Shown here: positions 40,586 to 61,140 of the stretch, piece after piece
Position numbering within the stretch: the stretch's first letter is position 1
How the letters are laid out: each line of letters opens with the position of its first letter
NCBI GenBank assembly: GCA_963674755.2
Contig: CAXXVS010000003.1
Span: forward strand, 1,216,001-1,280,000
Length of the DNA stretch: 64,000 nucleotides
Reading direction: 5' to 3'
From: Desulfobacterales bacterium
GTDB lineage: Bacteria > Desulfobacterota > Desulfobacteria > Desulfobacterales > UBA5852
The notes under the pieces: generated by a model
What the model was told of the DNA's origin: nothing
The model's input: only the letters and a program-made list of their open reading frames with translations
Databases searched by the model: none
Program-made: the position numbers and the translations under genes

Positions 40586-40758
40586 TGTAGCATGACACAA
40601 TTGCGGGAGACCCATAATTGTGTCGCCGCGGCCGGACACCTTTCTGCGAAAACTTCCCCGATTGCTTTCTGCTTCAATACGAATCAGCGTCATTCTTAGG
40701 AACGCAACGATCTGTCCCTCTTTCAATGATGAACGACTTCGGTGGCACAGGATTTGTA
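40586..40758 (+). promoter_or_regulatory. Bipartite enhancer plus sigma54 promoter of the cytochrome operon
   Basis: TGTAGCATGACACA (40586), AGACCCATAATTGTGTC (40608), TGGCACAGGATTTGTA (40743). Confidence 0.7.
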
Positions 40759-40929
40759 AAACCACCATGCCACAGGATCGGCAGACAAGGTCTCCCAAGT
40801 GCGGCAGGATAGTGCAAGACCCCCGGGTCCGTGACGCCCCGCAGCGTTTCCCCCTTTTGCTTTCAAACCGGAGCATTTTCGATAACGCCCAGACGGCGAA
40901 CGATCTTCATGAAAGGAGAACACACCAAA

Positions 40930-41820
40930 ATGGCCAAAAAAATTCATCGACGGGAATTCCTGGCCGGCGGCCTCGGGGCCGGCGCCATGGCGCTGGGGCT
41001 GGGAATCAGACCGGCCCCCTTGCAGGCGAAGGAGTCCGAACCGGAGTCCATTCCGTTTCCGCTGCCCCCACCCGTTGTCCCGCTGGACGTCGCTGCCGTG
41101 CGCCAGACGGCCTATGATCGCTATTTTCAAGGGGGCTGCATGTACGGCGCTGCGGCGGCGCTGGTGGAAGGGCTGCGGGAGGCCTGCCGACCCGCCGCCG
41201 ACGGGAGCGACTACACGGATTGGGATCTCATCCCCACCGGCATGTTCAAATACGGCAGCGGGGGCGTGGCCGGCTGGGGGACGATCTGCGGCATCTTAAA
41301 CGGCACGGCGGCGGTATTGGCCATGGCGGACTATGGTGGCCTTATCGATCAGGTGATGGGATGGTACACGATGCAATGCTTTCCTCTGGCGGACAGCGAC
41401 GATCTAGAGACGTCCGATCGCTCCTACCGGGCCCTGGCGGATAGCGAGGTGCCGGCTCACACGGTATCCGGTTCGCCCTTGTGCCATATCTCCATTGGCA
41501 AATTTTGTGCAGCCGCCGGCATTACGCTCAAGGACGCTTCGGCGGAAGGGATGAATTATAAACAGGACCGCTGTAGCAAAGTCTGTGCGGAGACAGCGGC
41601 TCTGGCGGCCTCGCTGATCAATGCCCAGTTGGCCGAAAGCGCGGAAACCCTTTACACCACACCGGAGTCCTATGCGTCCTGCCTGACCTGCCACGGGACC
41701 ATAAAAGATCAGGTGGGCAAGATGAACTGTCATGGATGCCATTCCACCTCCGAGGTTACGCTTGTCGGGAGCGGGCATGAGCGCAATGTGACAGCACCCA
41801 AGAATCGCAAAAAGCGTTAA
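40930..41820 (+). CDS. Tat-exported C-GCAxxG-C-C-family diheme protein (split-Soret cytochrome c-like)
   Basis: HRREFL Tat motif; GCMYG, GWGTICG, SPLCH, DRCSKV; C-terminal CLTCH and CHGCH. Confidence 0.8.
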   Translation: MAKKIHRREFLAGGLGAGAMALGLGIRPAPLQAKESEPESIPFPLPPPVVPLDVAAVRQTAYDRYFQGGCMYGAAAALVEGLREACRPAADGSDYTDWDLIPTGMFKYGSGGVAGWGTICGILNGTAAVLAMADYGGLIDQVMGWYTMQCFPLADSDDLETSDRSYRALADSEVPAHTVSGSPLCHISIGKFCAAAGITLKDASAEGMNYKQDRCSKVCAETAALAASLINAQLAESAETLYTTPESYASCLTCHGTIKDQVGKMNCHGCHSTSEVTLVGSGHERNVTAPKNRKKR

Positions 41821-41905
41821 TCCTGCATCTGGCGCTCCGGCGCCCCAAACCACTGTTTTCGCTAAACCAATCACCCGCCCAAACGGGCGGGCGGCGAAGA
41901 CCGCT

Positions 41906-44323
41906 ATGACACCAATAGCCGTATCAGATTATCACCAGAGACCGTCTGTGGTCGTCGGCACGGGGTTGATCCTGTTTACGATCCTGTTGGTCTGGTGCTT
42001 GCCGGCCATAGCCAAGATTCGCACCTGCGGACCGATTTACCTGCGGGATGCCGACGGGCGGGTCATCAACCCATTGACCGGGGAGAATGCGGATCAACCC
42101 TTCAGCACACGGCAGACCTGCGGCGCCTGCCATGATTACGAGCGCATTACGTCCGGCTACCATTTTCAACAGGGTTGGGATCGCATCCGGGATGATTTCT
42201 CCAAGGAAAAGCCCTGGGTGCTTTCCGACGGCATGATGGGCAAGCAGTGACCGCCCTCTTTTCGCCAGTTGGCGAAAAAGACAAACCAAGTCCCGGAAGC
42301 GATCGACCTCACCGTGTTCGAGTGGGTGACGGCCGGCAGCAATCCCCTCAAAGGCAAACCCGGCTGCGGCGGCTGCCACCCCGGCGGCGGCGGGATGGAA
42401 CGCGATCGCGACGGGCAACGCTACGACCGGCGGCTGGCAGAGCAGCCCGAACTGGCCCGAACATTGGACGGCGACTACCATCGCAGCCAATGGGACCGCA
42501 GCGGGGTGATCGAGGCGGATTGTTTTATCTGCCATCTCCCAGGGTATTACTTCAAGGAACGTATCCGTCAACTCGATCGGTTGAATTTCAAGTGGGCCAT
42601 CGTGGCCGCCACGGGCATCGGGCGGGTGACCGGTGCCGTAAAGGCCGGCGAAACGCCGGAGATTGTCTACAATCGTCGCTACTTCGACGATGACGGCCGC
42701 ATCGTCCTGGATTTGCTCTCGCCCCCGTCATCGGAGAATTGTGTGGCCTGCCATGGCATCGCCGATCTCATTAAACGCGGTTTCTCCTGGAACGAGCGCA
42801 TCAATCACGATGTCCATAATCTTCACGGTCTGGAGTGTGTCCAGTGCCACGCCGGCAACCCGGAGCATAATTTCGCCAAGGGCGATGAAAACATGTCAAC
42901 GGTGCGTGACGATCTCGACAACACCATGTTGACCTGCCGCCAATGCCACATGCAGGGGTTTATGGGGGCGCCCCGGCCGGAGCATACCGGCATCCGCCCC
43001 AACCATCTGGAAAAACTGGGCTGTGAAGTGTGCCACATCCCGGCGGTCTACCGCACGGCCGCCCGGGGGTTGTGCGTGTCCACGGGCAAAGTGGCCAATT
43101 ACCCCATGGCCGGCGCCCAGCACATCGGCGAACGGGTGCGCTGGCAGCCGGATTACCGGCGGGATGCTGACGAGGTACTGAAGCCGGTCAACGCCTTCCA
43201 GGCCAATCTCTATACCAACCGCGACGAAGACGGCCTTTATCATCCGTTGTTCGCCAGGGAGATCGCCGCTGCAGCCAAGATCATGGGCCCGCCGAAAGCC
43301 GCGCCGCAGTCCGATCAGCCCTTGATTCGGGAACCGGAGGACATCCGAGGCATGCTGTCGGCTCTGAAGACGACGCTTACCACGAATCGGCGCTTCGGCC
43401 GTGTTCGTCCGCGCTATCATTTACAGGGACGGATCTACGCCTTGGATGAAGCAGGCCGTCTCGTCGATACCCCGGACACCACCTGGGTGACGGAGGAGAA
43501 GGGGTTCAATATCAGCCACAATGTCGCCCCGACCCACGCGGCCCTGGGTGCCCAGGGGTGCGGCGACTGCCATTTGCGCAGCAGCCATGTCTTCGAGAGC
43601 TGGATTGCCCAGGAGCTGCAATCTCTGGAAACGCACGCCCCTCTGAAAATGAGCGGATTGAGCTGGCGTGGGCGTCCCCTGGCCGACTACCTCAAGGAGC
43701 TGCATGCGCACAATTGGCTGAAATACTACCTCGTTCCCGGATTGTTCACGCTGGTGTTTATCATCGTGGTCCATCGCCTTGTCGGCGGCGGCCTGCGGTC
43801 CGCATCGCTCCTGGGAACATGGACTGTCAACCTGCAGGTGGCCAGAGCTTTGCTGGTCACCTTTCAGGCGCTGGCGATCTCTTTTCTGGCGTTTTCAGGC
43901 CTGGTGTTCTTCTACAACAACATGTCGCTGTTGTTTATCTTCTTCAGCGACATGGAAACGGCCAGCCGTTTGCATGTCGCCATCGGGATCGCCTTCCTGA
44001 TATCAATAGGTCTGGTGAACGTGATTGACCGCCTTTGCGATTTTGCCCCCGGACGCCACCAATCCGGCCGCTACCTTTCCGGGCCCGTCCACCGGAAGTA
44101 TGGACGGGCGGCGGTTCCGGTTTGGCGCTCCTGGACGGACCACCTGGATACGCGCCTCATGTTCACCCTGGCGGTTTCCGGCGGCATCATGCTGTTTCGC
44201 CGTCATTTGGGATTGGAAATCAAATATCTCGTTTCCGCCTGTCACGCCGCCGCTGCGGTGGCTTTCGTGGCGGCCGTTCTGGCCAAGGTCTATTATCGAT
44301 TCACCCGACGGAACACGGGCTGA
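41906..44323 (+). CDS. Octaheme c-type cytochrome with C-terminal cytochrome b-like membrane domain; probable selenoprotein, TGA 42248-42250 read as Sec, 805 aa
   Basis: ORFs 41906..42250 and 42269..44323 are in frame (GMMGKQ-TGA-PPSFRQLAKK); 1+7 CxxCH; hairpin after the TGA; about 5 C-terminal TM helices, two with His. Confidence 0.82.
42257..42281 (+). promoter_or_regulatory. Putative bacterial SECIS hairpin
   Basis: TTTTCGCC-AGTT-GGCGAAAA: 8-bp stem, G at loop position 2, loop 16 nt after the TGA. Confidence 0.78.
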
Positions 44324-44438
44324 ACACCTTCTCTCTCCTGTAGTCCCCTTGGGGACGCCATATGCCTCACTCCTTTTTTCCATACCCCCCCCCTCCATAT
44401 ATACTGAACATCATTCAGGTAGTAAAAAGTTGCCCAAT

Positions 44439-44592
44439 TATGTCGCCTGAGGAATCATTTGACCCACAAATGCGGCATGGACGATTTTCCCCCTGACACA
44501 TGATCGCCCCTTTCCGGGATCAGCTTATAATCACGACAAAAACGTCCGTTAGAAACACCGCTGCCGATATGGTGCGATGGCCCGTTGGAAGC
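44439..44592 (+). promoter_or_regulatory. Possible degenerate enhancer plus sigma54 promoter upstream of the two-component operon
   Basis: Half-site TATGTCGC (44439), TGACCCACAAATGCGGC (44460), TGGCCCGTTGGAAGC (44578, GG-N10-GC). Confidence 0.45.
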
Positions 44593-45012
44593 GATCGGCG
44601 GAAAAATCGCAACGCCGGGTGGCGGGCCGGTTACCGCTAACGCCATCCCAAGATAGGGGGAGTCAACCACTTGCATGCACCATATATAGCGCATTCAGGG
44701 CTATTCCCGGTATCCGATATGAAATTATTTTCTTATTATTAAACGGTCTTTGAGAGCCGCGTATGTCATAATAGATTGATAATATTCAAAAAAAAATGAA
44801 TTTGTCGGGATTGCATGAAATTTGCTTTCACCACAGCTACGATCACTCTCAGACAGACTTCGATCCATTATCGTTCTTGATATCGAGGGTGTTGCCAACG
44901 GCATAGGCAAACCCTGCAAATAGTGTTGATCCATTTAATTCGGTTTAGAGCTTGGCGATGTTCTCCTTGTAGCGCGCCGCTTCCCTTGCGCGCAGACGAC
45001 AGGACGATCCTC

Positions 45013-47107
45013 ATGACCGGTTTGGGCAACCGTTTTCACGAACGATGGTGGGCGAATAACATCTTCTATGTCGGCCTGGCCCTCGGCATTCTCTACTGGG
45101 GGCTTGAATCCGCAATGCACGTCTATATTTTCGATGAAGGCACCCTGGCACAGCAGGTGATCAGCCCGGATGCCCACGAAATCTGGATGCGCCTGATGGT
45201 GGAAGGCCTTCTGGTGGGTTTCAGTTTCTACTGCCAAACCATCATCAACGCCCGGGAGCGGGTGGAAAGCGCCCTGATTCGCCGTGAAAAAGAGGCCAAC
45301 GATATCCTTGAAAACAATCCTGCCGCCATCATGCTCATCGATACAGAGACCCGGCGTATCAGTTGGGTGAACTCCAATGCCGTGCAATTGACCGGCAGTT
45401 CCAAGGAACAGCTCGTCGGTCGCGTCTGCCACGACCATCTCTGCCCTTCAAATCGCGGCAATTGCCCGGTGCTGGACTGGGGGCAGGTCCTGGACCGCTC
45501 CGAGCGGAAATTGATCGCGGCCGAAGGTACCGAGGTCCCCATTTTGAAAAGCGTGACCCGGGTCAACTACAAGGATCGTGAGCATTTGCTGGAGGCGTTT
45601 TTCGATATTACCAAGCAGAAGGAAATGCAGCGGGCCATCAAATCCGCCCATGCCGAACTCGCACAGATTTTTCAGACCGCCTCGGTGGGCATGCGCCTGA
45701 TCGACCGCGATTTCAATATTCTCAAGGTCAACGAAACCTTCGCGCGCCTGTCCGATTTCCCGGCGAATGAAGCCGTGGGCCGCAAATGCTTCGATGTCTT
45801 CTCGGGCGCCAAATGCCATTCGGCGGATTGCCCCCTGATCCAGATCCGCGACGGCCATGATCCTGCTGAATACGAAGTCACCAAGAAACGGACCGACGGT
45901 ACCCAGATTCCCTGCATTCTGCGATCGACCCCCTTCATCGGCCCGGATGGCGAAACCATCGGTATCGTAGAATCCTTTCAGGATATTACCGCCCTGAAGG
46001 CCATCCAGGAGGAGTTGCGGTCCGAGCGGGACAAGCTCCACCGCATCCTGTTCCAGCAATTGGAAGGCGTCGGCATCGTCAATGCCGAATGGCATATCGA
46101 ATACCGCAACGAGACGCTGGATACCATGCTGACCAACGTCGCCGGGCAAAAATGCTACGAGGTGTTCCGCCAGCGCGCAACGCCCTGCGCCCATTGTTAT
46201 ATGAAGGCCTCCATCGCCACGGGCACCATCCAGCGGTGCGAGTTCGATGCGGCCGACGGCAAAAGCTACGAACACACTTACACGCCCTTCGTGGACAGCG
46301 ACTTCCGGAAGAAAGCGGTCATCTCGGTGCGGGATATCACCGAGCGCAAGGCTTCGACCCTGGCGGCGGTACGCTCCGACCGGCTGGCCGCTTTGGGTGA
46401 ATTGGCAGCCGGGGTGGCCCATGAGATCAACAATCCGGTCAACGGGATCATCAACTACGCCCAGATTTTCGTCAACCGGTACCAGACGGACGGAATGATC
46501 AACGATATCAGCGGCCGCATCGTGAAAGAGGGCGACCGGATCGCCCGGATCGTCGAAAGTCTGCTGGCCTTTGCCCGCCAGGACGAAGATGAACGCGCTA
46601 TGACGGCGATCGAGGAGGTCCTGGCGGATTCGCTGACCTTGACGGCGGCCCAGCTGCGCAAAGACGGCATTGCGATCATGCTGGATATGCCGGCCGGTCT
46701 GCCGCCGGTGGAGGTTCACACCCAGAAGATTCAACAGGTCTTTGTGAACCTGATCAGCAATGCCCGTTACGCCCTCAATAAGAAGACGGACAAGGAGACG
46801 AACGGCGGCAAGCAGCTTCGCATCTCCGCCGAAACCGTTGATCAGGAGGGGGGGGGCCTGGCTGCGGATCATCTTCCATGACACCGGCATCGGTATTCCG
46901 GCAGAGGTCATCGACAAAATCATGAATCCCTTTTTTTCCACCAAACCCAAAGGGATGGGGACCGGTCTGGGGCTCAGCATCAGCCATGGCATCATCAACG
47001 ACCATCGCGGAACCCTGACGATTGAAAGCCGCGAAGGTGACTATACGCGTGTTACGATCGATCTGCCGGCAACCGTGCCGGCCGAGGAGGGCAGGTTAGC
47101 GTCATGA
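45013..47107 (+). pseudogene. Membrane PAS x3 sensor histidine kinase, frameshifted at a G9 tract (46848-46856); phase variant or sequencing error
   Basis: AHEINNP H-box and NLISNA N-box in one frame; DTGIG, NPFFSTK and GTGLGL boxes in another frame; G8 would join them. Confidence 0.85.
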
Positions 47108-48804
47108 ACGAGAAAATCCTGGTGGTGGATGACGAAGAGAGTATCCGTTATACGTTCCAGATGTTTCTGGAGGATGAAGGGTACCAGGTAACGACCGCGG
47201 ACAATTACGAGGTAGCCCTCGAGCACATCCAGGCCAGCGAATTCGATCTGGTGTTCATCGATATTATTTTGGAGGGGCGCTCCGGCATCGATTTGCTCCG
47301 CGCCCTGCGCGAACACCGCCCGGGGGTCCCGGTGATCATGATCACCGGGGCGCCGAGCGTCGAAACGGCTTCCGAAGCCCTACGGCTGGGGGCGCTGGAC
47401 TACATCGTCAAGCCGGTGCGCCAGGACAACCTGATGCGGGCCACCACCATGGCCGTTCGCCACAAACAGATGCTGGACGATAGGGAAAGCTGCCGGCAGA
47501 ACATGGAGGCCATTTTTCGCAGCGTCAAGGACGGCATCGTCACCGTGACGGCGGACATGACCGTGATGGAGGTCAATGCCGCGGCGGCGGTCATCTGCGG
47601 TATCCCCAAGGGCGATATTTCACAAAACCCGTTGGCCGCCATGCTGGGCGATTGCAGCGGCGAGTGCCTGAGGGCATTGCATGAGACGCTTAAAAGCCAG
47701 AAGGCCACCCATTTGCACCATATCGAATGCCGCGCCGGACGCCGGCCGGGACAGGTGGTCAGCGTCAGCGTTTCCCCTTTGTTGAGTCGACGCAACAAGT
47801 TTGCCGGGGGCGTTATGGTCCTGCGGGACGAAACACGTCTGCTCAACCTGGAAAGGAACTTGAAGGAACGCCAATTCTACGACCGCCTGATCGGCAATGC
47901 GCCCCGCATGCAGCGGGTCAAAGCGCTGATCAAAGACCTGGCCGGTGTGCCCACCACGGTTTTGTTGACCGGCGAGAGCGGCACCGGTAAGGAGCTGGTG
48001 GTGGACTCCCTGCATTTCCAGGGGGACCGGAGCGACAAGGCCCTGGTCAAAGTCAACTGCTCCGCACTTTCGGACAACCTTCTGGAGAGCGAACTCTTCG
48101 GCCACGTCAAGGGCGCCTTCACGGGGGCGGTCAAGGATCATGTGGGCCGCTTCCAGAAGGCTGATGGCGGGACGATTTTCCTGGACGAGATCGGCGACAT
48201 CTCCCCCAAGATGCAGCTGCGGCTGTTGCGGGCGATCGAGAACATGGAATTCGAGCGGGTCGGCGGCAACACCTCCATCAAGGTGGACGTGCGCATCGTG
48301 GCGGCGACGAACCAGGATCTGCGCCTCAGGGTGGCCCGGGGGCAGTTCCGGGAGGATTTGTTTTACCGGTTGCGCGTGATGGAAATCAATCTTCCGCCAC
48401 TGAGAGAGCGCCGGGAAGACATTCCCCTGCTGGTGAGCCATTTTATCCAGAAATTCAACCGCCGGCTCGGCAAACAGATCAAGACCGTGACGGAAGAAGC
48501 CCTGCGGTCCCTGACCTGTCATGACTGGCCCGGTAATGTGCGCGAGCTGGAAAACATGATCGAGCGGGCCTTTGTCCTCTGTCACCAGTCCACCATCACG
48601 ATGGACCACCTGCCCGAAGAACTGCTGTCCGGATCCCGCTCGCCGATGGGCGGTGCCTATCCGCTCACCGAAGACGAGGAAGTTTCCTCCATTCTGTCCG
48701 CCCTGGAGAAGACGGCCGGCAACAAGAGCCGGGCCGCCCGTCTTCTGGGGTTCAGCCGCAAGACGATCTATCGCAAGATCGAAAAGTATAATTTACACGT
48801 TTGA
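47104..48804 (+). CDS. NtrC-family sigma54 response regulator (REC-PAS-AAA+-HTH)
   Basis: ILVVDDE; GESGTGKE; GAFTGA; WPGNVREL; Fis HTH. Confidence 0.93.
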   Translation: MNEKILVVDDEESIRYTFQMFLEDEGYQVTTADNYEVALEHIQASEFDLVFIDIILEGRSGIDLLRALREHRPGVPVIMITGAPSVETASEALRLGALDYIVKPVRQDNLMRATTMAVRHKQMLDDRESCRQNMEAIFRSVKDGIVTVTADMTVMEVNAAAAVICGIPKGDISQNPLAAMLGDCSGECLRALHETLKSQKATHLHHIECRAGRRPGQVVSVSVSPLLSRRNKFAGGVMVLRDETRLLNLERNLKERQFYDRLIGNAPRMQRVKALIKDLAGVPTTVLLTGESGTGKELVVDSLHFQGDRSDKALVKVNCSALSDNLLESELFGHVKGAFTGAVKDHVGRFQKADGGTIFLDEIGDISPKMQLRLLRAIENMEFERVGGNTSIKVDVRIVAATNQDLRLRVARGQFREDLFYRLRVMEINLPPLRERREDIPLLVSHFIQKFNRRLGKQIKTVTEEALRSLTCHDWPGNVRELENMIERAFVLCHQSTITMDHLPEELLSGSRSPMGGAYPLTEDEEVSSILSALEKTAGNKSRAARLLGFSRKTIYRKIEKYNLHV

Positions 48805-48939: not shown

Positions 48940-49115
48940 TGTGTCACGACACAATGGCCCTGATACACAAATGTGACATGGCGCATGTCTTGGGCGGAAC
49001 AATTTCCGGATGCGACCCGAATTCCTTTCTTCTAAAGCCATAACGCTCTGTAAATACATCGAAAAATAAGTTTCAAGAATAGGCCGTCGACGCCCGGTTT
49101 GGCATGGAACTTGGA
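48940..49115 (+). promoter_or_regulatory. Bipartite enhancer plus sigma54 promoter of the giant gene 49260-53702
   Basis: TGTGTCACGACACA palindrome (48940), TGATACACAAATGTGAC (48961), TGGCATGGAACTTGGA (49100). Confidence 0.72.
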
Positions 49116-52200: not shown

Positions 52201-53702
52201 TTCTCTGGTCGGCCCCGGACACCTACGACCCCTATGAAAACGCTCGCCGGGTGCGGGTGGTACCCAATGACGAACTTGATGAGGAGAGTACCAACGGGAT
52301 CACCTTAGGCCTTCTTTACAAGGAAGGCAAGGACGGCCAGGGTGCGCCGGCCGACGCCATTTTGCGACTATTCCGCGGCGGGTTCGATGTCGCGGATATG
52401 GATCCGGAGCCGCTGAACTTGAGCTCTTCGACGCCCTACCTGTTCCAGAATCCGGATGATGCCGGCAGTGAAGACGGAAGCGGCGACAACCCGGCCGGCG
52501 ACGGCACCGGCGACATGCTGCCCAATCGCAACACACCCAAGATCGATCACTTCTACTGGACCGACGCCAACCTGCACGATCCCACCGGCTATTGGTACAA
52601 GTCAGAGGCCGGCGACAACCTATTCGACGAAGACGGCTACACGCCGGATATCAGTGGCAATCCCTTCGAGAACGTCTTCTCCACCCGCCTGGCCATCCAC
52701 GGCGACCTTGTCCTGGCCGGTTACGCCTACTGCGTCAACTGGTCGGCGGGCAAAAAGGCCAAGGACCACTACGACTTCTATATCCGGGTCTCCGAGGATG
52801 CCGGCGCGAAATGGACCCTGCCGGTCAATGTCTCCCAGCTCAAGAACCACGAGGAGTCGGTGGCCGACTGCCGGGTGATCCTCACGCCGCCGACGCTGGA
52901 TGATTGGGCAATTTACGATTCGCCATATGGTCAACGGATTCCTTTCTCCATGACCGGTGCCCCGGCGATTGAATCCCCGGGAGACTTCAACGAACCCAAC
53001 ACCTTTTTCGTGGGCGTGGGCACCAAGGAGAACATCCCCCAGCCTAGTCCCAACGTAACCGAATTGGAGGAGAGCGAGGTTTTTCTGGACACGTTCTACT
53101 CCCAGGCCAAAATTACGAACGGGGTGATTGAGTTCGAGACCTACCAGAAGGACAATCCCAAGTATATAGAGGGATCCAAACCCTACTTGGACGTCGACGG
53201 TAACCCGACCGATGACGCATGCGCGGAAATCCTCGACGATGACACCGGCACCTGCGTGCCCAACGAGCCCAACCCGGCCTTTCCCGAGCTGGTCGACGAG
53301 TTCAACTGGCTGGCCAAAGGCGACGCCAATCAAGGGGACATTCAGATGACCTGCAACCCCTTCGGCAGCCGCCTGTACACCATCTGGGAACAGGAATTGC
53401 CCATCACTGACGAGGACGGCCAGAAACACTTCCAGGGCTCCGACGTTTGGTTCCGCAAGATCATCTACGAAGAACCGGAGGCCTCCGAAAGCGGGGATGT
53501 GAACGGGGACGGCGACCTGACATGGGACGACGGTCGTGCCATTCTGGACGCCGTCGGCACGACGGCCTATGATGCGGATTTTCTGTGGGCCGGCGACTAT
53601 GACGGTGACTACCGCATTTCCGGCCGGGACTATAGCCGCTGGAAGCGCCTATACACCAAAGACAGCCTTGGCAATAAGAGAAAGAAATGGCGTTCAAAGT
53701 AG
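49260..53702 (+). CDS. Giant secreted protein, 1480 aa, paralog of 33724-38367; two CxxCH, rubredoxin-like inserts, dockerin-like C-terminus
   Basis: AAGGAG RBS; signal peptide ending PAMA; SYDEGLTW, WQEDPKG, NHKTDIWYS, YENARR; CRSCH, CTGCH; CTACPYVYDP..WVCPLC; GDVNGDG..GDYDGD. Confidence 0.82.
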   Translation: MRRKQSFWVALVAICLLGTISPAMADWGDVTNKFSISTSAPVANTNVDGTFTTIDVTVTFSADLDDAIMGDLRLLVVPLDGTPAPRNPDGEMGLDGSNPIIYYILPTGEDGELVPNESVTITMEMEGNVSSPDFNFSIEVNDESIDTTIFRKKISKTPEYYSGEGGIEVMPLYVEARSTQGYAYTRDTLSGDLIPCCPDECPNGEEGADDVCGICDPSCAASGYATVKPLVVTYVQEEEEAPFNSVPSYDPNEDGVADEGDRYAHDIYAAVSYDEGLTWKRRNISRTSLKSSFTLPNGVSYPGDSEDADLTVVGPYAFVTWVDKYCRSGDPWDMEAQDIDDIYQVTGSQKSVDYLDVTGDEDPRPDLGVRPFSCLWGARGVLDMEPETADGEANPNYGTIVWYKAEQLSTGRRDAKRNFNAGIEPVHDPNLNENNLVEGTGGFAVSWQEDPKGLKTGKGRGPGAGMSGACVNHKTDIWYSYIGWSDFATVDEDFVSNSDGDAVQDGDGESMSNYFCTACPYVYDPELGDVEHDILAGTSFDSLPEDWVCPLCGAAKADFEKDAKPHALVHFHPPVRVTDNAVCRERNPTEIMGHVHTADHIAVTDCDYYYEGGTTNQPLAWDDLPDDWACPKCGGTKDTFEAEAIFIKYRNEGAPYCEWFANNPRVDGDGNEVSSTEDAYAVAYYTTDEGEPLDGNTGASRANLSLVNWQGETLALMAYEETKGVGAGSDKEAAAMEQAAPLPLVKMDDGTWEAGFTNSDCRSCHYKNVVPRDRVIPVSDQTICEEVKGGVWKEELEAYFPYTGYPYITDQSVDVGQLAADGVSYDTSNAVKCVKFQGGWGMYPRDYAQIYEGDNYYNLPDHMPGWHQEALDCTGCHLPYNTKDSDGDTINDRADMCPGTPAGADDIDMNPESVNYGCSASESPDDQDNNKDEPDRFRHGKNLYYHHFVFNDPDLAAIGHGDQINGFSRDVLGQDDEGNDILWSAPDTYDPYENARRVRVVPNDELDEESTNGITLGLLYKEGKDGQGAPADAILRLFRGGFDVADMDPEPLNLSSSTPYLFQNPDDAGSEDGSGDNPAGDGTGDMLPNRNTPKIDHFYWTDANLHDPTGYWYKSEAGDNLFDEDGYTPDISGNPFENVFSTRLAIHGDLVLAGYAYCVNWSAGKKAKDHYDFYIRVSEDAGAKWTLPVNVSQLKNHEESVADCRVILTPPTLDDWAIYDSPYGQRIPFSMTGAPAIESPGDFNEPNTFFVGVGTKENIPQPSPNVTELEESEVFLDTFYSQAKITNGVIEFETYQKDNPKYIEGSKPYLDVDGNPTDDACAEILDDDTGTCVPNEPNPAFPELVDEFNWLAKGDANQGDIQMTCNPFGSRLYTIWEQELPITDEDGQKHFQGSDVWFRKIIYEEPEASESGDVNGDGDLTWDDGRAILDAVGTTAYDADFLWAGDYDGDYRISGRDYSRWKRLYTKDSLGNKRKKWRSK

Positions 53703-53893
53703 CAGATCGGCAAGGAAGCATTGAATCATCTTGTGAACGGTGGACTGCACTGATGGTGATTGAGCAGTCCGCCGTCACAGCCCCGTTTCCCTTATAGTGG
53801 GTGCTGATTCCCGCTGTTCCGGAATCCGGTCGGATCGAAGTCCTGACCCGTCAAGGAAACCATCGGAGCCTCTGTCCAAGGAAGGGTGCCGCG

Positions 53894-54097: not shown

Positions 54098-54388
54098 GGC
54101 CTTGCCGGTCTGAGCGTATGAAACCCGCTGATCTTGTGTACAGGCGGTCCTTATTGCCTGCCATCATCAGTGCCAATCGGAGGTTGCGCTTCAACCGCTG
54201 GGGTCATGCGTATTGGAAAAACGGATCTCGATTAAGAGGTAAATAAATTCCCAGTCTAATTGCACGTACTGCTTTTGGCAGACGCCTTCCATAACCGTCA
54301 ACATCACCCGTCGCTGCCGCATTAATTGGCCTTCAGCCTGCAATCGAGACAACGCTATAAATCCAGACTCCCGTGGAAGGGTTGCGCC

Positions 54389-54661
54389 ATGATGGAAAAA
54401 CGTCAGTTTTGCCGCACCGATCTGACGATGCCGGTCAAAGTCCGGCACGGCGCCCGGGTGGCGTGGCAATCCGTGGAAAATATCAGCCGCGGCGGAGCGT
54501 ATATCAGGGGCAAAGCAATGGCCCGGCGGGGCGAGCGCCTGGAACTGGTTTTCAGCTTCCCCGGCCTGGCCGCGCCGATTCCGCTGCCTTGTCGGGTCGT
54601 ACGGCGGGATGCTGCCGGCATCGGTGTCCACTTCATTCCCTATCCGGTGGGCGAATCCTGA
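54389..54661 (+). CDS. Stand-alone PilZ-domain protein
   Basis: RQFCR (RxxxR) and NISRGG (D/NxSxxG) motifs. Confidence 0.8.
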   Translation: MMEKRQFCRTDLTMPVKVRHGARVAWQSVENISRGGAYIRGKAMARRGERLELVFSFPGLAAPIPLPCRVVRRDAAGIGVHFIPYPVGES

Positions 54662-54758
54662 CACGGTCGAATTTCAACGGCGGCCGGACCGATCCAAATA
54701 CGATGGTAACATTCCGGCGGTATCGCCTGGGGCTTGCCATAAAACGTGTGGGGGTGGT

Positions 54759-54774
54759 TGGCACGATAGATGCT
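54759..54774 (+). promoter_or_regulatory. sigma54 promoter upstream of gspE
   Basis: TGGCACGATAGATGCT. Confidence 0.75.
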
Positions 54775-55005
54775 ATAGACTTCCTCACGGACGCCGGTGC
54801 GTGGGGACCGGCTGTTTACAGGCGCGACGATCTGGTGCTAATGTGATTGTGGTGGCGCCGCAGCAGGGTACGATACGGTTTCCAGCGAATGGCCGCCGAA
54901 ACGCCCGGGGGCATTTCGCCCATATCTCGTGCCGGACATTGCCCACCGCCCTTGCCGCGGTTGGTCTTCACGGCTTCGATCATCTGACACAGGCGGTATT
55001 CCGAC

Positions 55006-56541
55006 ATGCGCGAATCCCAAGCGAACGACCGTATTCCACGCTCCCGTTATCCCCTTGAGCCGGTAGCCCTCGATAACCTGTCGGTCAAGTTTATGAAGCA
55101 GGCCTGTTTCGTGCCGCTGCGCCTGGCGGGTCAGGAGCTGGAGATCGCCATGGCCGACCCCCAGGCGGTGGACACCCTGGAAGCGCTGGAAGCGGCGTTC
55201 GGCCTGTCGGTCGTGCCTGTGATCGGCCATCGTGAAGATATCCAGGAAGTCATCGAACTATTGTACGGCACCGGGCGCCAGTCCATGGAGACCATTATCG
55301 AACAGGCCGGACAGGATGTCTTCGAAACCATTGGCGATGGCGAGGAGGATGCCGATCACTTGCGCGATATGGCCTCCGAAGCGCCGATTATCCGCCTGGT
55401 CAACCGCTTGATCCTCAATGCCATCGAATTACGGGCCAGCGATATTCACTTCGAACCCTTCGAGAGCGAATTCAAGGTCCGCTACCGCATCGACGGCGTG
55501 TTAAACGATGTGGAGGCGCCTCCCAAGCGGCTGCAATCGGCCATCATTTCGCGGGTCAAGATCATGGCCAAGCTGGATATTTCCGAGCGCCGCCTGCCCC
55601 AGGACGGCCGCACCAAGCTGAAGATCGGCGGCAAGGAGATCGATTTCCGTATTTCGACGATCCCCACCCTCTTCGGGGAGAGCGTGGTGATGCGCATCCT
55701 GGACAGGGATACCCTGGTGCTCGATCTGCGGCAATTGGGCTTTCCGGACCACCTGCTGGACCGCTACCTGAAACTGGTCACCCAGCCCCACGGCATGATC
55801 CTGGTCACCGGACCCACCGGAAGCGGCAAGACCTCCACCCTCTACGCCACCCTGGCCCGGATCAATTCGCCCGAGAATAAAATCATCACCCTGGAAGATC
55901 CGGTGGAATACCAGTTGAAGGGCATCAACCAGATTCAGGTCGCCCCCAAGATCGGGCTGACCTTTGCCGGCGGGCTGCGTTCCATCGTTCGCCAGGATCC
56001 AGACATCATCCTGGTGGGAGAGATCCGGGACCGGGAAACCGCCGAGACGGCCGTGCAATCGGCCCTGACGGGCCACTTGCTGTTCAGTACGCTGCACACC
56101 AACGATGCGGCGGGGGCGGTGACCCGCATGCTGGATATGGGGGTCGAAAGCTTTCTTCTCAGCTCGACCCTGTTGGGGGTTCTGGCCCAGCGCCTGGTGC
56201 GTCTGCTTTGCCCCGTGTGCAAGACGCGCCACGAGCCGGATCCGGACGAATTGGCCACCATGGGCATCCCCCCGGACGAGGCGGCCGGCCTGACCCTCTA
56301 TGAACCCCAGGGCTGTGAGGCCTGCCGGGGAACCGGTTATAAAGGGCGCACCGCCATTTTCGAATACCTGAGGGTCGACGACGACCTCCGCCGGGAAATC
56401 AACGCCCATGCCGACACCGAACGTATCAAGCAGGTGGCGGTGGAAAAGGGCATGGTGCCGCTGCGCCGCGACGGGTGGCAGAAGGCCGCCCAGGGCGTGA
56501 CCACTCTGGCTGAAGTATTCAAGGTAACCCTCGAGGACTAG
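55006..56541 (+). CDS. gspE: Type II secretion ATPase
   Basis: ASDIHFEP, RLPQDGR, GPTGSGKT, EDPVEY, RQDPD, STLHTND; tetracysteine motif. Confidence 0.92.
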   Translation: MRESQANDRIPRSRYPLEPVALDNLSVKFMKQACFVPLRLAGQELEIAMADPQAVDTLEALEAAFGLSVVPVIGHREDIQEVIELLYGTGRQSMETIIEQAGQDVFETIGDGEEDADHLRDMASEAPIIRLVNRLILNAIELRASDIHFEPFESEFKVRYRIDGVLNDVEAPPKRLQSAIISRVKIMAKLDISERRLPQDGRTKLKIGGKEIDFRISTIPTLFGESVVMRILDRDTLVLDLRQLGFPDHLLDRYLKLVTQPHGMILVTGPTGSGKTSTLYATLARINSPENKIITLEDPVEYQLKGINQIQVAPKIGLTFAGGLRSIVRQDPDIILVGEIRDRETAETAVQSALTGHLLFSTLHTNDAAGAVTRMLDMGVESFLLSSTLLGVLAQRLVRLLCPVCKTRHEPDPDELATMGIPPDEAAGLTLYEPQGCEACRGTGYKGRTAIFEYLRVDDDLRREINAHADTERIKQVAVEKGMVPLRRDGWQKAAQGVTTLAEVFKVTLED

Positions 56542-56542
56542 T

Positions 56543-57769
56543 ATGGCCGCCTATACCTACAAAGCCGCCGACCCCCAGGGGAAGATCATTCGCGGCAGCA
56601 TGGAGGCCGCCGACGAGGCCGCGGTCGTGGCCGGGTTGCAGACCAAGGGATGCCTCCCCATCCGCATTCAGATCGCCGAGGCCTCGCCCTCGGGCCGCGC
56701 TTGGGGGCGTCTGTTGACCGCCACTTGGGGCGGTGCCGTGACAGGGCGGGATCTGACCGGGTTTACGCGGGATCTGGCCACCCTCTTCGGGGCCGGTCTG
56801 CCCATCGACCGGGCGCTGCACATCCTGATCGATGCCACCGAAAATCAGCGTTTCAAGCCCATTATTCAATCTATGCTGGAGGACGTTCAGGGGGGCAGCT
56901 ATCTCTCGGATGCGATGATGAAGCATCCGCGAATATTTTCCAAATACTATACCAATATGGTCCGGGCCGGGGAGGTGGGCGGCGTGCTCGAGGCCGTTCT
57001 GGGCCGTCTGGGCGTTTTTCTGGAAGAAAGCCAGGACCTGCGCGAGTACGTGCGCTCGGCCATGATTTATCCGATCTTCCTGGTGGTCGTGGGAGGCGTT
57101 TCCGTTCTCATCCTGCTGACCTTTGTCATTCCGAAATTTGCGATCATTTTTGCGGATATGGGCCATGCGCTGCCCCTTTCGACGCGTTTTCTGCTGGGTT
57201 TCAGCACCTTTCTGCGGGACTATGCCTGGATCATCCTCCTGACCCTGGCGGCAGCGGGAATTGCCGTGTCACGCTGGCTGCGCACACCCATCGGCCGCTA
57301 TCGGATCGATGGCCTCAAGCTCCGGCTGCCGGTCTGGCGGGATATTGTACAGGCCATGGAAACGGCCCGCTTTACGCGCACCCTGGGGACCCTTATCCAA
57401 AGCGGCGTTCCCATTCTCAAAGCACTCATGCTGGTGCGGGACGTGATCGCCAACCGGGTCGTGGCCGATGCCATCGAGGTCATTCAGGACCGTGTCAAAG
57501 AGGGGGAGTCCATGGCACGGCCCATGGCGAGCGCCGGCTACTTCCCCCCGCTGGCCGTGCAGATGGTGACCGTGGGCGAAGAGACGGGAACACTGGATCT
57601 CATGTTGCTGAAGATTGCCGACAGTTACGACAAACACCTGCGCAGCCTGATCAAGCGTCTGATCAACCTGCTGGAGCCCGTCATGATTCTCGTGATGGGC
57701 CTGGTGGTGGGATTTGTCGTAATTTCCATGTTGATGGCCATTTTCAGCATCAACGAATTGCCTTTTTAA
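56543..57769 (+). CDS. gspF: Type II secretion inner membrane platform protein
   Basis: YTYKA; AGEVGG; AMIYP; GEETG; LLEP. Confidence 0.92.
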   Translation: MAAYTYKAADPQGKIIRGSMEAADEAAVVAGLQTKGCLPIRIQIAEASPSGRAWGRLLTATWGGAVTGRDLTGFTRDLATLFGAGLPIDRALHILIDATENQRFKPIIQSMLEDVQGGSYLSDAMMKHPRIFSKYYTNMVRAGEVGGVLEAVLGRLGVFLEESQDLREYVRSAMIYPIFLVVVGGVSVLILLTFVIPKFAIIFADMGHALPLSTRFLLGFSTFLRDYAWIILLTLAAAGIAVSRWLRTPIGRYRIDGLKLRLPVWRDIVQAMETARFTRTLGTLIQSGVPILKALMLVRDVIANRVVADAIEVIQDRVKEGESMARPMASAGYFPPLAVQMVTVGEETGTLDLMLLKIADSYDKHLRSLIKRLINLLEPVMILVMGLVVGFVVISMLMAIFSINELPF

Positions 57770-57784
57770 AGTTGGGAGCGTTTT

Positions 57785-58219
57785 ATGCGTGTATCCGAAA
57801 ACCGCCGCCAAGGTTTTACACTGATCGAATTGCTGCTGGTGATGGTGATCCTCGGGCTGCTGGCCGCCCTGGTGGGACCGCGTTTCTTCGGCCAGGAGAA
57901 AAAGGCCAAACAACGGGCCGCCAAGGGGCAGATCGCGCTTTTCGAGGCGGCGCTGGATAATTACCGTCTCGATGTCGGGCGCTATCCGACCACCGCGCAG
58001 GGATTGCAGGCCCTGCGGGAAAGGCCCGACGGGGTGACCAAATGGGACGGCCCCTACCTCAAAAAAGCCGTTCCGAACGACCCCTGGGGCAACGCTTTTG
58101 CCTACGAATCGCCCAGCGAGCACGGGGATTATGCCATCATCTCCTATGGAGCGGACGGACGTCCGGGGGGTGAGGATGTGGACACGGACATTGTCAGCTG
58201 GCAGGACATCGCCCGATAG
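57785..58219 (+). CDS. gspG: Major pseudopilin
   Basis: GFTLIE; YRLDVGRYPTT; WDGPYL; DPWG. Confidence 0.95.
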   Translation: MRVSENRRQGFTLIELLLVMVILGLLAALVGPRFFGQEKKAKQRAAKGQIALFEAALDNYRLDVGRYPTTAQGLQALRERPDGVTKWDGPYLKKAVPNDPWGNAFAYESPSEHGDYAIISYGADGRPGGEDVDTDIVSWQDIAR

Positions 58220-58220
58220 G

Positions 58221-58757
58221 ATGACGCCCTTCCTAAAGCAACGTCATGTGCAGAGGGGCTTCACCCTTCTGGAATTGCTGGTGGTCCTGCTTCTGGTGGG
58301 GGTGTTGGCGGCCTTCGTCCTGCCCCGGGTGGGGGGATCGCTGCCCGGTCTGCAATTGCGCACGGCCGCCCGCAAAATGGCCGCCACCTTCCGCTACGCC
58401 ACCCAGCGGGCCATGACGGAACAGGTGACGTATCGTGTCCGTCTGAACGATGATGCCGGTATGGTAACCCTGGCTCCCGTACCGGCTTCCGGCGTACTTC
58501 CGGCCGATCCGTTTGCCGCGGCGCATACGCCTTCCCCGTCCTTGGATCGCTGGCAGCTGCCCGAAGAGATCCAGCTTCTCTTCCCCCTGGATCGGGACGA
58601 TCAGACGGCCGGCGATGACTATGTGATCTTTTTTTATCCGGATGGCAGCGGCAGCGGGGGGGCGGTCAGGCTGGCCGCCACCAATGGGCGGCAGATGGAA
58701 GTTCAAACGGATTTCATCACCGGCGAAACCACCATCCGGGATGTTGAACAGGGGTGA
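58221..58757 (+). CDS. gspH: Minor pseudopilin
   Basis: GFTLLE prepilin site; FYPDGSGSGG. Confidence 0.85.
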   Translation: MTPFLKQRHVQRGFTLLELLVVLLLVGVLAAFVLPRVGGSLPGLQLRTAARKMAATFRYATQRAMTEQVTYRVRLNDDAGMVTLAPVPASGVLPADPFAAAHTPSPSLDRWQLPEEIQLLFPLDRDDQTAGDDYVIFFYPDGSGSGGAVRLAATNGRQMEVQTDFITGETTIRDVEQG

Positions 58758-59206
58758 GGCGTGCCAAGATGACCGGTCCAACCTTCACACAGATTGTCAT
58801 GCGGCCCGTTATGGGCGCCCGCAGGGGATTCACCCTGCTGGAAGTGTTGGTGGCCACCATGGTGCTGGGTATTGCGGTGGTGATCGTCATGCAGCTATTT
58901 TCAGGCGGGCTCGACCAGGCCAAACGGGCCGGGGATTATACCCGGGCCGTCTTTCACGCCCGGGCCAAAATGGAAGAAGTCCTGCTCGATCCCCCGTCCG
59001 GACCGGTTGCGGAGCAGGGCGAGTTCGACGACGGATACCGCTGGGCGTTGGAGACCGTGACGGATGCGGATTTGACGGCCGAGGGGTTGGGGGTGCAGCC
59101 GGTCGTGGTGCGGGTAACCGTCGGCTGGGGCTTCGATCAGCACCCCAAAACCTTTTCCCTCCAGACCATGACCCTGGCCCCGGCGCCGGAGGAACCGCCG
59201 TCCTGA
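58754..59206 (+). CDS. gspI: Minor pseudopilin
   Basis: GFTLLEVLVA; gene order. Confidence 0.8.
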   Translation: MRRAKMTGPTFTQIVMRPVMGARRGFTLLEVLVATMVLGIAVVIVMQLFSGGLDQAKRAGDYTRAVFHARAKMEEVLLDPPSGPVAEQGEFDDGYRWALETVTDADLTAEGLGVQPVVVRVTVGWGFDQHPKTFSLQTMTLAPAPEEPPS

Positions 59207-59268
59207 CCGCGGATGATCGGCAACGGCCTTGTCCCGGCGGAGAATCGAATAGGGGAAAGCGGACTGCC

Positions 59269-59895
59269 ATGCCCACCCATAGAGGATTTACCCTGCTGGA
59301 ACTCATCCTGGCATTGGCCATCATGGGGATGGTCGTTCTGGTGGCCCTGGGGGCTTTCCGCATCGGACAGCGCGCCTGGGAGCGCGGGGATGCCGTTGCG
59401 GCCCAGAACCAGCGGCTGCGTATCGGCGCCGAGCGCCTGCGTCAGCAGTTGGCGGCGGCCACCATCTATCTCATGCCGGGGGAAGACGAGGCCGTTATCG
59501 GGTTTACGGGCAGTGCCAGCGAAATTCGTTTCGTATCACGCCTGTCGCTGGTTCCCGGCCATGAGCAGGGGCTCGTGTATGTTCACTACCGCCTACTGGA
59601 AACCGCGGATCAGGGACAGGTGCTGGCCTTTTACGAACAGCCCGTGATGCTGCTGGAGGGCCTTCCCCAGGACGAACCGGCGCCGGAAGCGTTCCATCGC
59701 CTGATCGTGGGGCTGAGTGAGGCGGCTTGGCAGTACCGTGGTGGTGGGGACAGCGCCGAGGGCTCATGGCAGGCGGTCTGGGAGGCGGGCGAGGCGCTGA
59801 ACCTGCCGGAGGCGGTTCGGCTGCAGCTGGGCTACGGCAATGATCCGCCCCTGTCGGTCATCATTCGCGTGGTCAACCCCGAGGAGGGATCGTGA
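59269..59895 (+). CDS. gspJ: Minor pseudopilin
   Basis: MPTHRGFTLLE; C-terminal W..LPEAVRL. Confidence 0.82.
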   Translation: MPTHRGFTLLELILALAIMGMVVLVALGAFRIGQRAWERGDAVAAQNQRLRIGAERLRQQLAAATIYLMPGEDEAVIGFTGSASEIRFVSRLSLVPGHEQGLVYVHYRLLETADQGQVLAFYEQPVMLLEGLPQDEPAPEAFHRLIVGLSEAAWQYRGGGDSAEGSWQAVWEAGEALNLPEAVRLQLGYGNDPPLSVIIRVVNPEEGS

Positions 59896-60971
59896 CGGTG
59901 TGGCGGGCCGCCCTCTATCGATCCGGCGTGTTGCCGCGGGACTTCGGAGGCTGCCGGCATCAGGGACTGTCCGGTCAATCCGGGGTGGCGCTTGTCATGG
60001 TGATCTGGATTCTGGCCCTGCTGATGGTGATTGTGGGCGAGTTTGGCTACAGCATGCGTACCGAGGTCAACGCCACCCGGCAGTTCAAGGAAGCGGCCGA
60101 AGCCTACTACATTGCCGAAGCCGGCCTCAGCCGAGCCATTGTGGAGATCTTGCAGCAAAGCACGGCCAGCGATGAAGCGGACGATGGGGCCGCGCCATTA
60201 TCCGCGGAAGGTCCCGAGGCCCCCTGGCGCGTCAATGTCCCCCTGCCGGCGGTACCTTTCGGCGAGGGGCAATACCGTGTCTACATCGACAATGAGAGCG
60301 GTCGCGTGAACATCAATACGGCGGAACGCGGCCTGCTGCAGATGCTGGTGGATCACTTCGACTTGAGCGAGACTGAAAAGGATACCATCGTGGACGCCAT
60401 TCTGGACTGGCGCGACAGCGACGAACTGCACCGCCTCAACGGCGCGGAGAGCGACTACTACCAGTCCCTGCCCCGGCCCTATCACAGCAAGAACGGCCCC
60501 TTCGATTCGGTTTCGGAACTGCTTCTGGTGCGGGGCGTCACACCGGAGATTTACTACGGCGGTTTGCAGGACATGGTCACTGTGGCGCTGGACGACGGGT
60601 CCTGGGCCGGCCAGGGACTCACCCGCGCCAAGGCTTTGCGCCGCGCCGCCGGTGGCGCCGTCAATATCAATGCGGCGCGGCCTGCGATGCTGGCGGCGCT
60701 GCCGGACATGACCGCCGATGCGATTCAGGATGTGCTCGCCTTTCGCGAACACGACGATTTTCGCTCCCTGGACGAGGTGGCCACTGTGGTGGGTGGGGAA
60801 ATATTCGAAGCCATTGCGCCGTTTATTACCCTTCAAATGTCACCCTATTACATCATTCACACGGAAGGCCGTTTGACGGACAGCCCCGTTCGGCAGCTTG
60901 CTTCCACCCGTGTGCGCATCGATCCTGGGGGAGAAACGACATTTGTCGTACTCGAGCGCCGCATGAATTAA
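59892..60971 (+). CDS. gspK: Minor pseudopilin
   Basis: GVALVMVIW; ESGRVNIN; DAILDWRD; ELLLVRGVT. Confidence 0.9.
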   Translation: MTVWRAALYRSGVLPRDFGGCRHQGLSGQSGVALVMVIWILALLMVIVGEFGYSMRTEVNATRQFKEAAEAYYIAEAGLSRAIVEILQQSTASDEADDGAAPLSAEGPEAPWRVNVPLPAVPFGEGQYRVYIDNESGRVNINTAERGLLQMLVDHFDLSETEKDTIVDAILDWRDSDELHRLNGAESDYYQSLPRPYHSKNGPFDSVSELLLVRGVTPEIYYGGLQDMVTVALDDGSWAGQGLTRAKALRRAAGGAVNINAARPAMLAALPDMTADAIQDVLAFREHDDFRSLDEVATVVGGEIFEAIAPFITLQMSPYYIIHTEGRLTDSPVRQLASTRVRIDPGGETTFVVLERRMN

Positions 60972-60986
60972 ACGCTCTCATCGGTG

Positions 60987-61140
60987 TGTGGCGTGATACA
61001 CTCCTGGTGACCCACAAGTGGGACTTTGTCCCTCCAAGGGTCACACTCCCCGGCCTAGGGGATGGAAACGGTTTGATTTTTTTGATAAAACATCCGCAGT
61101 TGCTGGGTCACAACGCGATGGATTTGGCACGGGTTTTGGA
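60987..61140 (+). promoter_or_regulatory. Bipartite enhancer plus sigma54 promoter of the gspLMC genes
   Basis: TGTGGCGTGATACA (60987), TGACCCACAAGTGGGAC (61008), TGGCACGGGTTTTGGA (61125). Confidence 0.72.

Follow-up and report, generated by a model that had tools for sequence, protein, structure and literature searches.

A small sigma54-dependent regulon was identified in a 64,000-nucleotide stretch of a Desulfobacterales genome (the window; the genome is called G000 below). Judged from comparison of sequences, four sites are likely enhancers of the activator encoded at 47104-48804, which would co-induce a cytochrome operon, two choice-of-anchor O genes and gspLMCD, and we give this reading a probability of about 0.85. 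In our assessment the regulon is real, new, small and of a known kind, and its mechanism is an ordinary, textbook one.

Sites, promoters and target genes

All sites are confined to 31 kb. Three of them lie on the forward strand of the window and the fourth just beyond it, 5' of a third choice-of-anchor O gene; each of the four precedes a sigma54-type promoter by some 150 bases. The initial annotation had described a bipartite enhancer with box 1 starting at 40586, 48940 and 60987 and box 2 at 40608, 48961 and 61008, i.e. with offsets of 22, 21 and 21 bp, and we recovered these positions exactly. The tandem sites are thus real, but the repeated unit is probably a 14-bp dyad, TGTGNC-AT-GNCACA, which recurs at a distance of 32-33 bp with a half-site in the middle. 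Box 2 is therefore likely the junction of two half-sites, and two dyads fit better than two boxes. Enhancer 1 (40586-40632) comprises dyad A (40586-40599), the middle half-site (40609-40614) and, 33 bp past dyad A, the left half only of dyad C (40619-40624). Enhancer 2 (48940-48985) carries dyad A at 48940-48953, the middle half-site at 48962-48967 and a near-complete dyad C at 48972-48985, 32 bp past dyad A. Enhancer 3 (60987-61032), which starts immediately 3' of the gspK stop, again combines dyad A (60987-61000) and the middle half-site (61009-61014) with only the left half of dyad C (61019-61024).

A -24/-12 element of the GG-N10-GC type lies upstream of each of the three operons, on the forward strand at 40743-40758, 49100-49115 and 61125-61140. 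As annotated before, TGGCAY-N5-TTG begins here 135, 139 and 117 bp past box 2 (continuing as TTGTA, TTGGA and TTGGA); the -24 half and the spacing are perfect and the -13 G is present, while the -12 C is replaced by T, G and G, respectively. Transcription is predicted, from canonical sigma54 spacing, to start at 40769, 49126 and 61151. The centre of dyad A is 157-180 bp upstream of these positions, so the tandem palindromes fall within the expected range of about 80-200 bp. The spacers between enhancer and promoter have a GC content of 44-51% compared with 58% for the genome, and the best matches to the IHF consensus in the four spacers have 2, 2, 1 and 2 mismatches.

The description of these promoters as atypical turned out to be overstated, since the -12 C is likewise missing from 39 of the 89 oriented TGGCAY-N5-TTG sites in intergenic DNA of this genome (gene calls made here), which makes the promoter a frequent variant and not a rarity. 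By itself, a non-C base in 3/3 promoters has a chance of 0.085. Upstream of choice-of-anchor O genes in other genera, a non-C base (G, A or T) is found in 6/6 promoters; as a general feature of the activator family it was rejected (12/19 family promoters vs 39/89 in the background, p=0.14). According to PMC4551910, 96% of the sigma54 promoters in a compilation keep the -12 C, and loss of this base goes along with weak transcription that bypasses the activator; the data stem from work with E. coli and a mutant in Region I, a different system from the one studied here. Among the promoters listed in PMC4641369 we counted 9/87 without it.

The first target operon encodes a split-Soret-like diheme cytochrome c (40930-41820, forward) with a twin-arginine-type leader and two CxxCH motifs, which matches PDB entry 1h21 (E 2e-18) and scores below the cut-off of NF047622. 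It further contains a predicted selenocysteine octaheme cytochrome (41906-44323, forward) with eight CxxCH motifs and a hydrophobic C-terminal region, which appears to be a single gene read through an in-frame TGA at 42248-42250. Several features point to a selenoprotein: one TGA is carried by 21 of its 38 matches, Cys occupies this position in one homologue, a SECIS-like hairpin at 42259-42278 is kept in 10/10 close loci, and selA, selB and tRNA-Sec are present in the genome. The loop of the hairpin, 16 nt past the TGA and with G as its second base, fits the model given in the relevant part of PMC13188914; its folding energy by itself is not significant (z -0.96).

Giant protein 2 (49260-53702, forward) belongs to the choice-of-anchor O proteins; it has two rubredoxin domains (Pfam), two CxxCH motifs and, at its N-terminus, a hydrophobic leader. 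Giant proteins 1, 2 and 3 score 534, 419 and 693 bits against NF040591 (choice-of-anchor O), all above its curated cut-off of 125 bits. A search of the protein atlas with giant protein 2 gave no usable match, and the choice-of-anchor O profile found none among PDB sequences; a fold search with giant protein 3 returned sialidase-type propellers with low TM-scores (0.1-0.2 by query), which indicate the fold class only. The third target comprises gspL-like (PilM/PilN), gspM and gspC genes (61215-63898, forward), with gspD next, just past the window. Thus, the cytochrome operon, giant protein 2 and gspLMC, named as targets initially, were retained, but this set was incomplete, as a fourth member lies outside the window and the gsp operon runs to gspD. 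Two neighbours were rejected as members: gspE-F-G-H-I-J-K (55006-60971, forward), which has a separate canonical sigma54-like site (54759) but lacks an enhancer array of this type, and the gene for giant protein 1, with a canonical -12 element and a different palindrome. The neighbourhood suggests that the giant proteins may be exported by the type II secretion system (T2SS). No riboswitch or other RNA was found in the leaders of the window or in 8 related loci.

Rarity and conservation of the motif

We scanned the 6.7-Mb genome on both strands with an idealised 24-base motif in four gap sizes. Only nine rows had at most 6 mismatches, and the four rows with at most 5 represent the three window sites alone (2, 3 and 5 mismatches, site 2 being listed twice); a perfect sigma54 site was absent from all five rows with 6 mismatches. 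The motif is hence not frequent at random positions (frequent occurrence would have spoken against the annotated regulon), although the test is partly circular because the idealised consensus was built from the same three sites. Under an iid model, 1.8 matches with at most 5 mismatches are expected genome-wide and 0.018 in the window, and 0.009 with at most 3 mismatches genome-wide. An independent matrix was trained only on DNA located 3' of non-congeneric activator relatives, with the caveat that its seed shape, TGT-N8-ACA, came from this window. Among 139 intergenic sigma54-like sites it puts the window sites at ranks 1, 3 and 5 and the fourth site at rank 2 (chance about 2e-5). Using a matrix for which the four sites are themselves the training set, they score 38-48 bits, and no further regulon members were found elsewhere in the genome, the next score being 21.5, without a sigma54 site. 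With a rigid three-dyad model derived from distant relatives, site 3 did not appear within the top 25.

In a congeneric genome (G010), the 46-bp enhancers are identical at 34/46, 34/46 and 40/46 positions, compared with 8-15 of 40 in their ungapped flanks. All four sites and their -12 bases are conserved there as footprints; inspection of the orthologous intergenic regions, a check proposed for the three window sites, showed that these and their non-C -12 bases are kept.

A blind pattern scan over 401 genomes matched 9/401 as compared to 7/401 for the reversed-pattern control, a count so close to the control that the matches tell something only by where they lie. Outside G000 and G010, 5/7 matches lie directly 3' of the stop of a related PAS-AAA-HTH gene, whose products are 46-53% identical to the activator and share the helix R[RK]T[IL]YRK. 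One of the other two is intergenic, in a genome with a 56% orthologue on another contig, and one falls inside a coding sequence. At least 3 half-sites within 400 bp past the stop were found in 10/24 family loci (two of them identical copies) vs 1/210 other activators; with the statistic fixed, 20 held-out family loci gave at least 3 half-sites in 1 and at least 2 in 2. Among the six held-out loci sharing the helix, two have no adjacent array and three have variant arrays (2 judged by eye). The motif recurs next to activator relatives in other families and phyla. No array was seen in the loci retrieved from three genomes having choice-of-anchor O genes and no activator match at E<=1e-100 (one locus without upstream DNA). 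Only in G000 and G010 are T2SS and cytochrome operons both under the motif; the cytochrome also adjoins the activator at locus L023. A table of co-occurrence by genome was discarded as unusable, because the underlying protein search of 400 genomes was limited to 3 scored candidates in each and overlooked relatives that turned up later.

The activator and alternative explanations

The gene at 47104-48804 (forward) encodes a sigma54 activator of REC-PAS-AAA+-HTH architecture with a GAFTGA loop in the AAA+ domain and the recognition helix SRKTIYRK in the C-terminal HTH, and it is the predicted binder; rpoN is present in the genome. G000 has 67 activator-like genes, and none of the others belongs to its family (1160 bits, next best 319). 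In a quick tree it falls into a supported clade of 11 activators; homology searches place a choice-of-anchor O gene next to 8 of them, and a ninth has such a neighbour by N-terminal likeness. That this single local activator would be the common regulator, as proposed initially, is the best reading, with comparative support from the way in which the motif follows the subfamily across genomes.

The regulon might be real and yet inactive or phase-variable in this organism, which is compatible with the preferred reading and has an appreciable probability, though clearly below one half. The sensor histidine kinase (PAS, HisKA, HATPase; 45013-47107, forward) is split at a run of nine G (46848-46856) by a +1 frameshift, through which its ATPase domain would be lost by slippage; the frame is intact in G010, and G000 has one extra G. 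Widespread homopolymer error in the assembly is not indicated, since 122/142 in-gene G/C runs of at least 8 are over 150 nt from a stop. However, errors in long-read assemblies most commonly take the form of a single homopolymer slip, and neither the activator nor any of the four sites is damaged. The circuit may accordingly be off or subject to phase variation in this organism; alternatively, the assembly may be wrong at this position.

Somewhat less probable is binding by the same regulator in another register, with a dimer on box 2 (GACACA-N4-TGTGTC) and box 1 as a separate accessory site. CACA-N4-TGTG is indeed among the top de novo palindromes 3' of relatives (8/24 vs 3/147), TGT-N8-ACA ranks outside the top 15, sites 1 and 3 no longer carry the right half of dyad C, and the box-2 junction is mainly what three relatives keep (L021, L022, L099). 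Against this stand full 14-bp dyads 32-34 bp apart with a poor middle at L005, L007, L197-L200 and L218, as well as three dyads in a row at L024 and L102. Moreover, relatives with other helices (L222, L225) keep TGT-NN-CATG-NN-ACA without the N4 junction, and TGT...ACA is the motif form given for this HTH class in the relevant part of PMC4641369.

Binding of these sigma54 enhancers by another of the 67 activators is improbable. The second activator C3:578832 has a similar helix (GRKTLYRK), and according to the D. vulgaris results in part of PMC4641369, similar motifs do not always go with similar HTH domains, and of two co-localised activators one failed to bind. However, no array is found near C3:578832, which the tree does not group with the family but sets on a long branch of uncertain position, and the motif accompanies the REC-PAS family in other genomes regardless of the target gene. 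Origin from a duplicated promoter segment or small repeat element, without selection for binding, is largely refuted and very unlikely: the sites do lie within one short region and promoters 2 and 3 of G010 are followed by near-identical riboswitch copies, but each site resembles its G010 orthologue while the flanking DNA does not, the motif occurs beside relatives in other families and phyla, and the genome holds no more copies.

Related systems and possible function

Returning to the reading with 47104-48804 as regulator, we compared it with described systems. As far as the relevant parts of PMC4641369 cover them, small local enhancer-binding-protein regulons of Deltaproteobacteria likewise comprise 1-4 operons per activator, with the activator gene beside a target promoter and TGT...ACA half-sites; for DVU2956, three half-sites were shown by EMSA. 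Spacings of 9, 11 or 12 bp are given there for TGT/ACA groups, as opposed to TGT-N8-ACA here, and the latter dyad is absent among the supplement matches listed for six half-site words. The DVU0744 regulon of D. vulgaris, whose sites come nearest among those published, also has a sigma54 response-regulator activator and tandem TGTNACA heptamers, arranged as two 14-bp pairs 34 bp apart in strain G20 and about 33 bp in Miyazaki, and a response regulator noted for its additional PAS domain appears in print as 'DVU0774' but is probably DVU0744 (same parts of PMC4641369). Family member L225 (helix RQT) shows DVU0744-like heptamer pairs. However, the inner bases are GT/GC/GA/GG here and AA/TA/GA in the DVU0744 sites, and the target given there is one regulatory gene, DVU0682, with no cytochromes, choice-of-anchor O proteins or T2SS. 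An orthologous regulon is therefore not supported, as binding sequence (TGTAACA/TGTTACA/TGTGACA pairs) and target differ, while the site geometry is alike. The octaheme cytochrome resembles the multiheme selenoenzyme MccSep/ExtKL (PMC13510729, in part) and the selenoprotein cytochromes listed in PMC13188914 in being a selenocysteine multiheme c-type protein from a related phylum-level setting. Identity with ExtKL/MccSep was rejected (no NF040886 match; 8 CxxCH motifs vs five hemes): the target has a membrane tail and no PDB sequence match, and it scores far below the cut-offs of TIGR04314/TIGR04315.

In the proposed mechanism, the upstream PAS kinase would phosphorylate the receiver domain of the activator, whose dimers would occupy the two 14-bp dyads, separated by three turns of the helix, and the middle half-site. 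The AAA+ hexamer would then loop over the AT-richer spacer to the sigma54 holoenzyme at -24/-12, about 160-180 bp from dyad A, and open the promoter. The likely purpose would be an exported redox and surface module of periplasm-facing heme proteins and large beta-propeller proteins with rubredoxin and heme sites, together with the type II secretion parts for their export. A more far-reaching combination, which we consider doubtful, is that the clade serves specifically to switch on a cell-surface redox module not described so far, with promoters selected against the -12 C and a simple helix code. Here, the selenocysteine octaheme membrane cytochrome and its split-Soret-like partner would feed electrons to the giant rubredoxin/heme beta-propellers, exported by the module's own type II system, an insoluble or sulfur/selenium acceptor would be respired, and two recognition-helix residues would set the two variable bases of TGT-NN-CATG-NN-ACA.

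Our literature search returned no paper naming choice-of-anchor O or NF040591, none carrying the exact dyad words, and nothing related for sigma54 combined with type II secretion and Deltaproteobacteria. The regulon is the first regulatory handle found on choice-of-anchor O proteins and links them to a secretion system and to a predicted new selenocysteine cytochrome. In addition, it yields a motif with which DNA binding by a widespread subfamily of REC-PAS activators can be tested, and cultured hosts exist (Desulfosarcina and Desulfopila records among L019, L021 and L022).

Four sigma54 promoters with a shared enhancer

The initial annotation had proposed a two-part enhancer (box 1 and box 2) followed by a sigma54 promoter upstream of a cytochrome operon, of giant protein 2 (giant 2) and of gspLMC (sites 1, 2 and 3). 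All boxes and promoters were found exactly where they had been placed, with a perfect TGGCAY-N5-TTG 116–138 bp 3' of box 2 at each site. Using an idealised motif (TGTGTC-N2-GACACA-N7..10-GACACA-N4-TGTGTC), we scanned both strands of the 6.71-Mb source genome and obtained nine rows with up to six mismatches; the four rows with up to five correspond to sites 1–3 alone. As the motif was derived from these very sites and an iid model predicts about 1.8 such matches genome-wide, independent tests were needed. A matrix trained solely on the 450 bp downstream of 24 non-congeneric activator relatives, its seed shape taken from the window, gave the four sites, site 4 being second, ranks 1, 2, 3 and 5 among 139 intergenic sigma54-like sites. 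Site 4 (G000:C3:1287293, minus strand; G000 is the source genome) lies upstream of a third choice-of-anchor O gene, and its promoter ends in TCGAT. No fifth full site was found in this genome.

The candidate activator (47104–48804) has an orthologue in one of 16 same-family genomes, that of the congeneric G010 (85% identity), where the whole gene cluster is also present. Enhancers and promoters 1–3 are all retained there with unchanged −12 bases, and site 4 is likewise conserved. Enhancer identity amounts to 34/46, 34/46 and 40/46, compared with 8–15/40 in ungapped flanks. The distance from the first 14-bp palindrome to the promoter is 157, 160 and 138 bp at sites 1–3 and 160, 161 and 160 bp in G010. 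The four-promoter sigma54 regulon, a prediction from sequence, is judged to be real.

Enhancer architecture and the −12 position

In relatives, the arrays often consist of two complete 14-bp dyads (TGTGNC-AT-GNCACA) separated by 32–34 bp, between which lies an incomplete copy, and two related loci carry three full dyads. At sites 1, 2 and 3 the offset from the first dyad to the second is 33, 32 and 32 bp, and only site 2 has a near-complete second dyad. Based on these arrays and this spacing, box 2 is read as probably the junction of two half-sites. A possible alternative register, favoured by de novo counting, takes the box 2 palindrome CACA-N4-TGTG as the unit.

The promoters had also been called atypical. 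The −12 C is indeed missing at sites 1–3, but it is also absent from 39 of the 89 oriented intergenic TGGCAY-N5-TTG sites of the genome (16 A, 18 T, 5 G; wrong-spacer controls totalled 5 and 14), from 9/87 entries, counted by eye, in a D. vulgaris promoter list (PMC4641369), and, among 24 arrays of other genera, from 12 of the 19 that have a sigma54-like site. A non-C −12 is therefore a common variant rather than a defining oddity. The 12/19 compares with the genomic background at p=0.14, and all six promoters upstream of choice-of-anchor O genes in other genera are among the 12; a target-specific bias is possible. Non-consensus −12 bases have been linked to weaker repression of basal transcription (PMC4551910).

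The adjacent activator and its relatives

The product of 47104–48804 is a REC-PAS-AAA+-HTH protein with an intact GAFTGA; the genome has 67 activator-like genes, and no other belongs to this subfamily. At least three half-sites occur 3' of the stop codon at 10/24 family loci (two identical), compared with 1/210 other activators. A blind pattern scan matched 9/401 genomes, a raw count that says little since the reversed-pattern control reached 7/401. Of the seven matches outside the two congeneric genomes, five lie directly 3' of a related activator gene, one is intergenic, its genome carrying an activator orthologue elsewhere, and one falls within coding sequence.

A held-out set (20 fetched out of 30 previously unexamined family matches) was weaker than the 24-locus set, with three half-sites at one locus and two at two. 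Here, array presence tracks the recognition helix: none of 14 loci with a helix other than R[RK]T[IL]YRK has an array, and the six with it comprise one full array, three variant arrays accompanied by a sigma54 site (two of them assessed by eye) and two with none adjacent, although such family counts are small and kin are not independent. The dyad bases also differ (L018, L026, L098, L027, L222, L225): position 5 is preferentially G in DRKT members, TGTTGC-AT-GCAACA occurs in two of three RVT members, and the single RQT member has TGTAAC-type dyads. These few loci are suggestive of dyad bases varying with the helix. The TGTAAC-type dyads match the heptamer pairs that the supplement of PMC4641369 gives for DVU0744 of D. 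vulgaris.

Judged from sequence, the four-promoter regulon very probably belongs to the adjacent activator, which would drive it in standard sigma54 fashion. Looping by a hexamer is the general mechanism of such activators. The literature searched, mostly papers free of subscription, contained no description of the dyad motif or of how the target genes are regulated.

Upstream of the sensor kinase gene that precedes the activator, degenerate half-sites (44439–44500), weakly retained in G010, form a possible autoregulatory site. Compared with the intact G010 gene, the kinase gene is frameshifted by a G9 run (46848–46856) that is one G longer, possibly an assembly error or phase variation; G runs of this kind show no excess close to gene ends in the assembly.

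Target genes

Operon 1 encodes a split-Soret-like diheme cytochrome and a second gene (41906–44323) broken in the ORF list at a TGA. This TGA is in frame and retained in G010, in a related locus (L023) and in 21/38 phylum matches, with Cys in its place in one homologue examined; a conserved hairpin follows it, and selA, selB and tRNA-Sec are present. The gene is predicted to encode an octaheme cytochrome that contains selenocysteine and ends in a membrane tail; its family may be a selenoprotein family that has not been listed before. No family model matched above cut-off, a profile search gave no ExtKL match, and the family occurs in 37/301 phylum genomes. A TIGR04315 octaheme cytochrome (2067–4184) likewise spans two ORFs connected by an in-frame TGA (2865–2867), for which folding found no clear hairpin; TIGR04315 is listed as a selenoprotein in PMC13188914.

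In G010, near-identical c-di-GMP-I-GGC riboswitches lie 3' of promoters 2 and 3 (L002 3093–3168 and 16991–17066); none was detected in the window or eight related loci. A small PilZ protein gene (54392–54661), with two homologues in G010, precedes the gsp cluster, which fits a c-di-GMP link.

Operons 2 and 4 encode choice-of-anchor O proteins. Giant 2 (49260–53702) additionally has two rubredoxin domains, two CxxCH motifs and two short C-terminal Asp/Gly-rich repeats, which resemble calcium-binding or dockerin-type loops and have no Pfam match. The model of giant 3, the operon 4 protein, is mostly beta (pLDDT 79.9, pTM 0.84); sialidase-type propellers match it best, though with low TM-scores, and this does not imply enzyme activity. 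The long leader of giant 3 is strongly conserved between both genomes (L096 ~6800–7130, minus strand; L003), and no Rfam family matches it at gathering score. The sigma54 site of giant 1 is canonical and its palindrome is another one, TGAAAT-AT-ATTTCA (38525–38650, minus strand), with two copies there and three in G010; one further copy lies 30 bp upstream of an activator gene (G000:C2:2226392) whose product is a candidate regulator of giant 1.

Operon 3 is gspL-M-C-D, part of a type II secretion system. According to the predicted sites, the secretion and cytochrome arms are co-regulated in the two congeneric genomes only. A choice-of-anchor O gene adjoins 8–9 of the 11 activators of one supported clade and is thus the conserved core.
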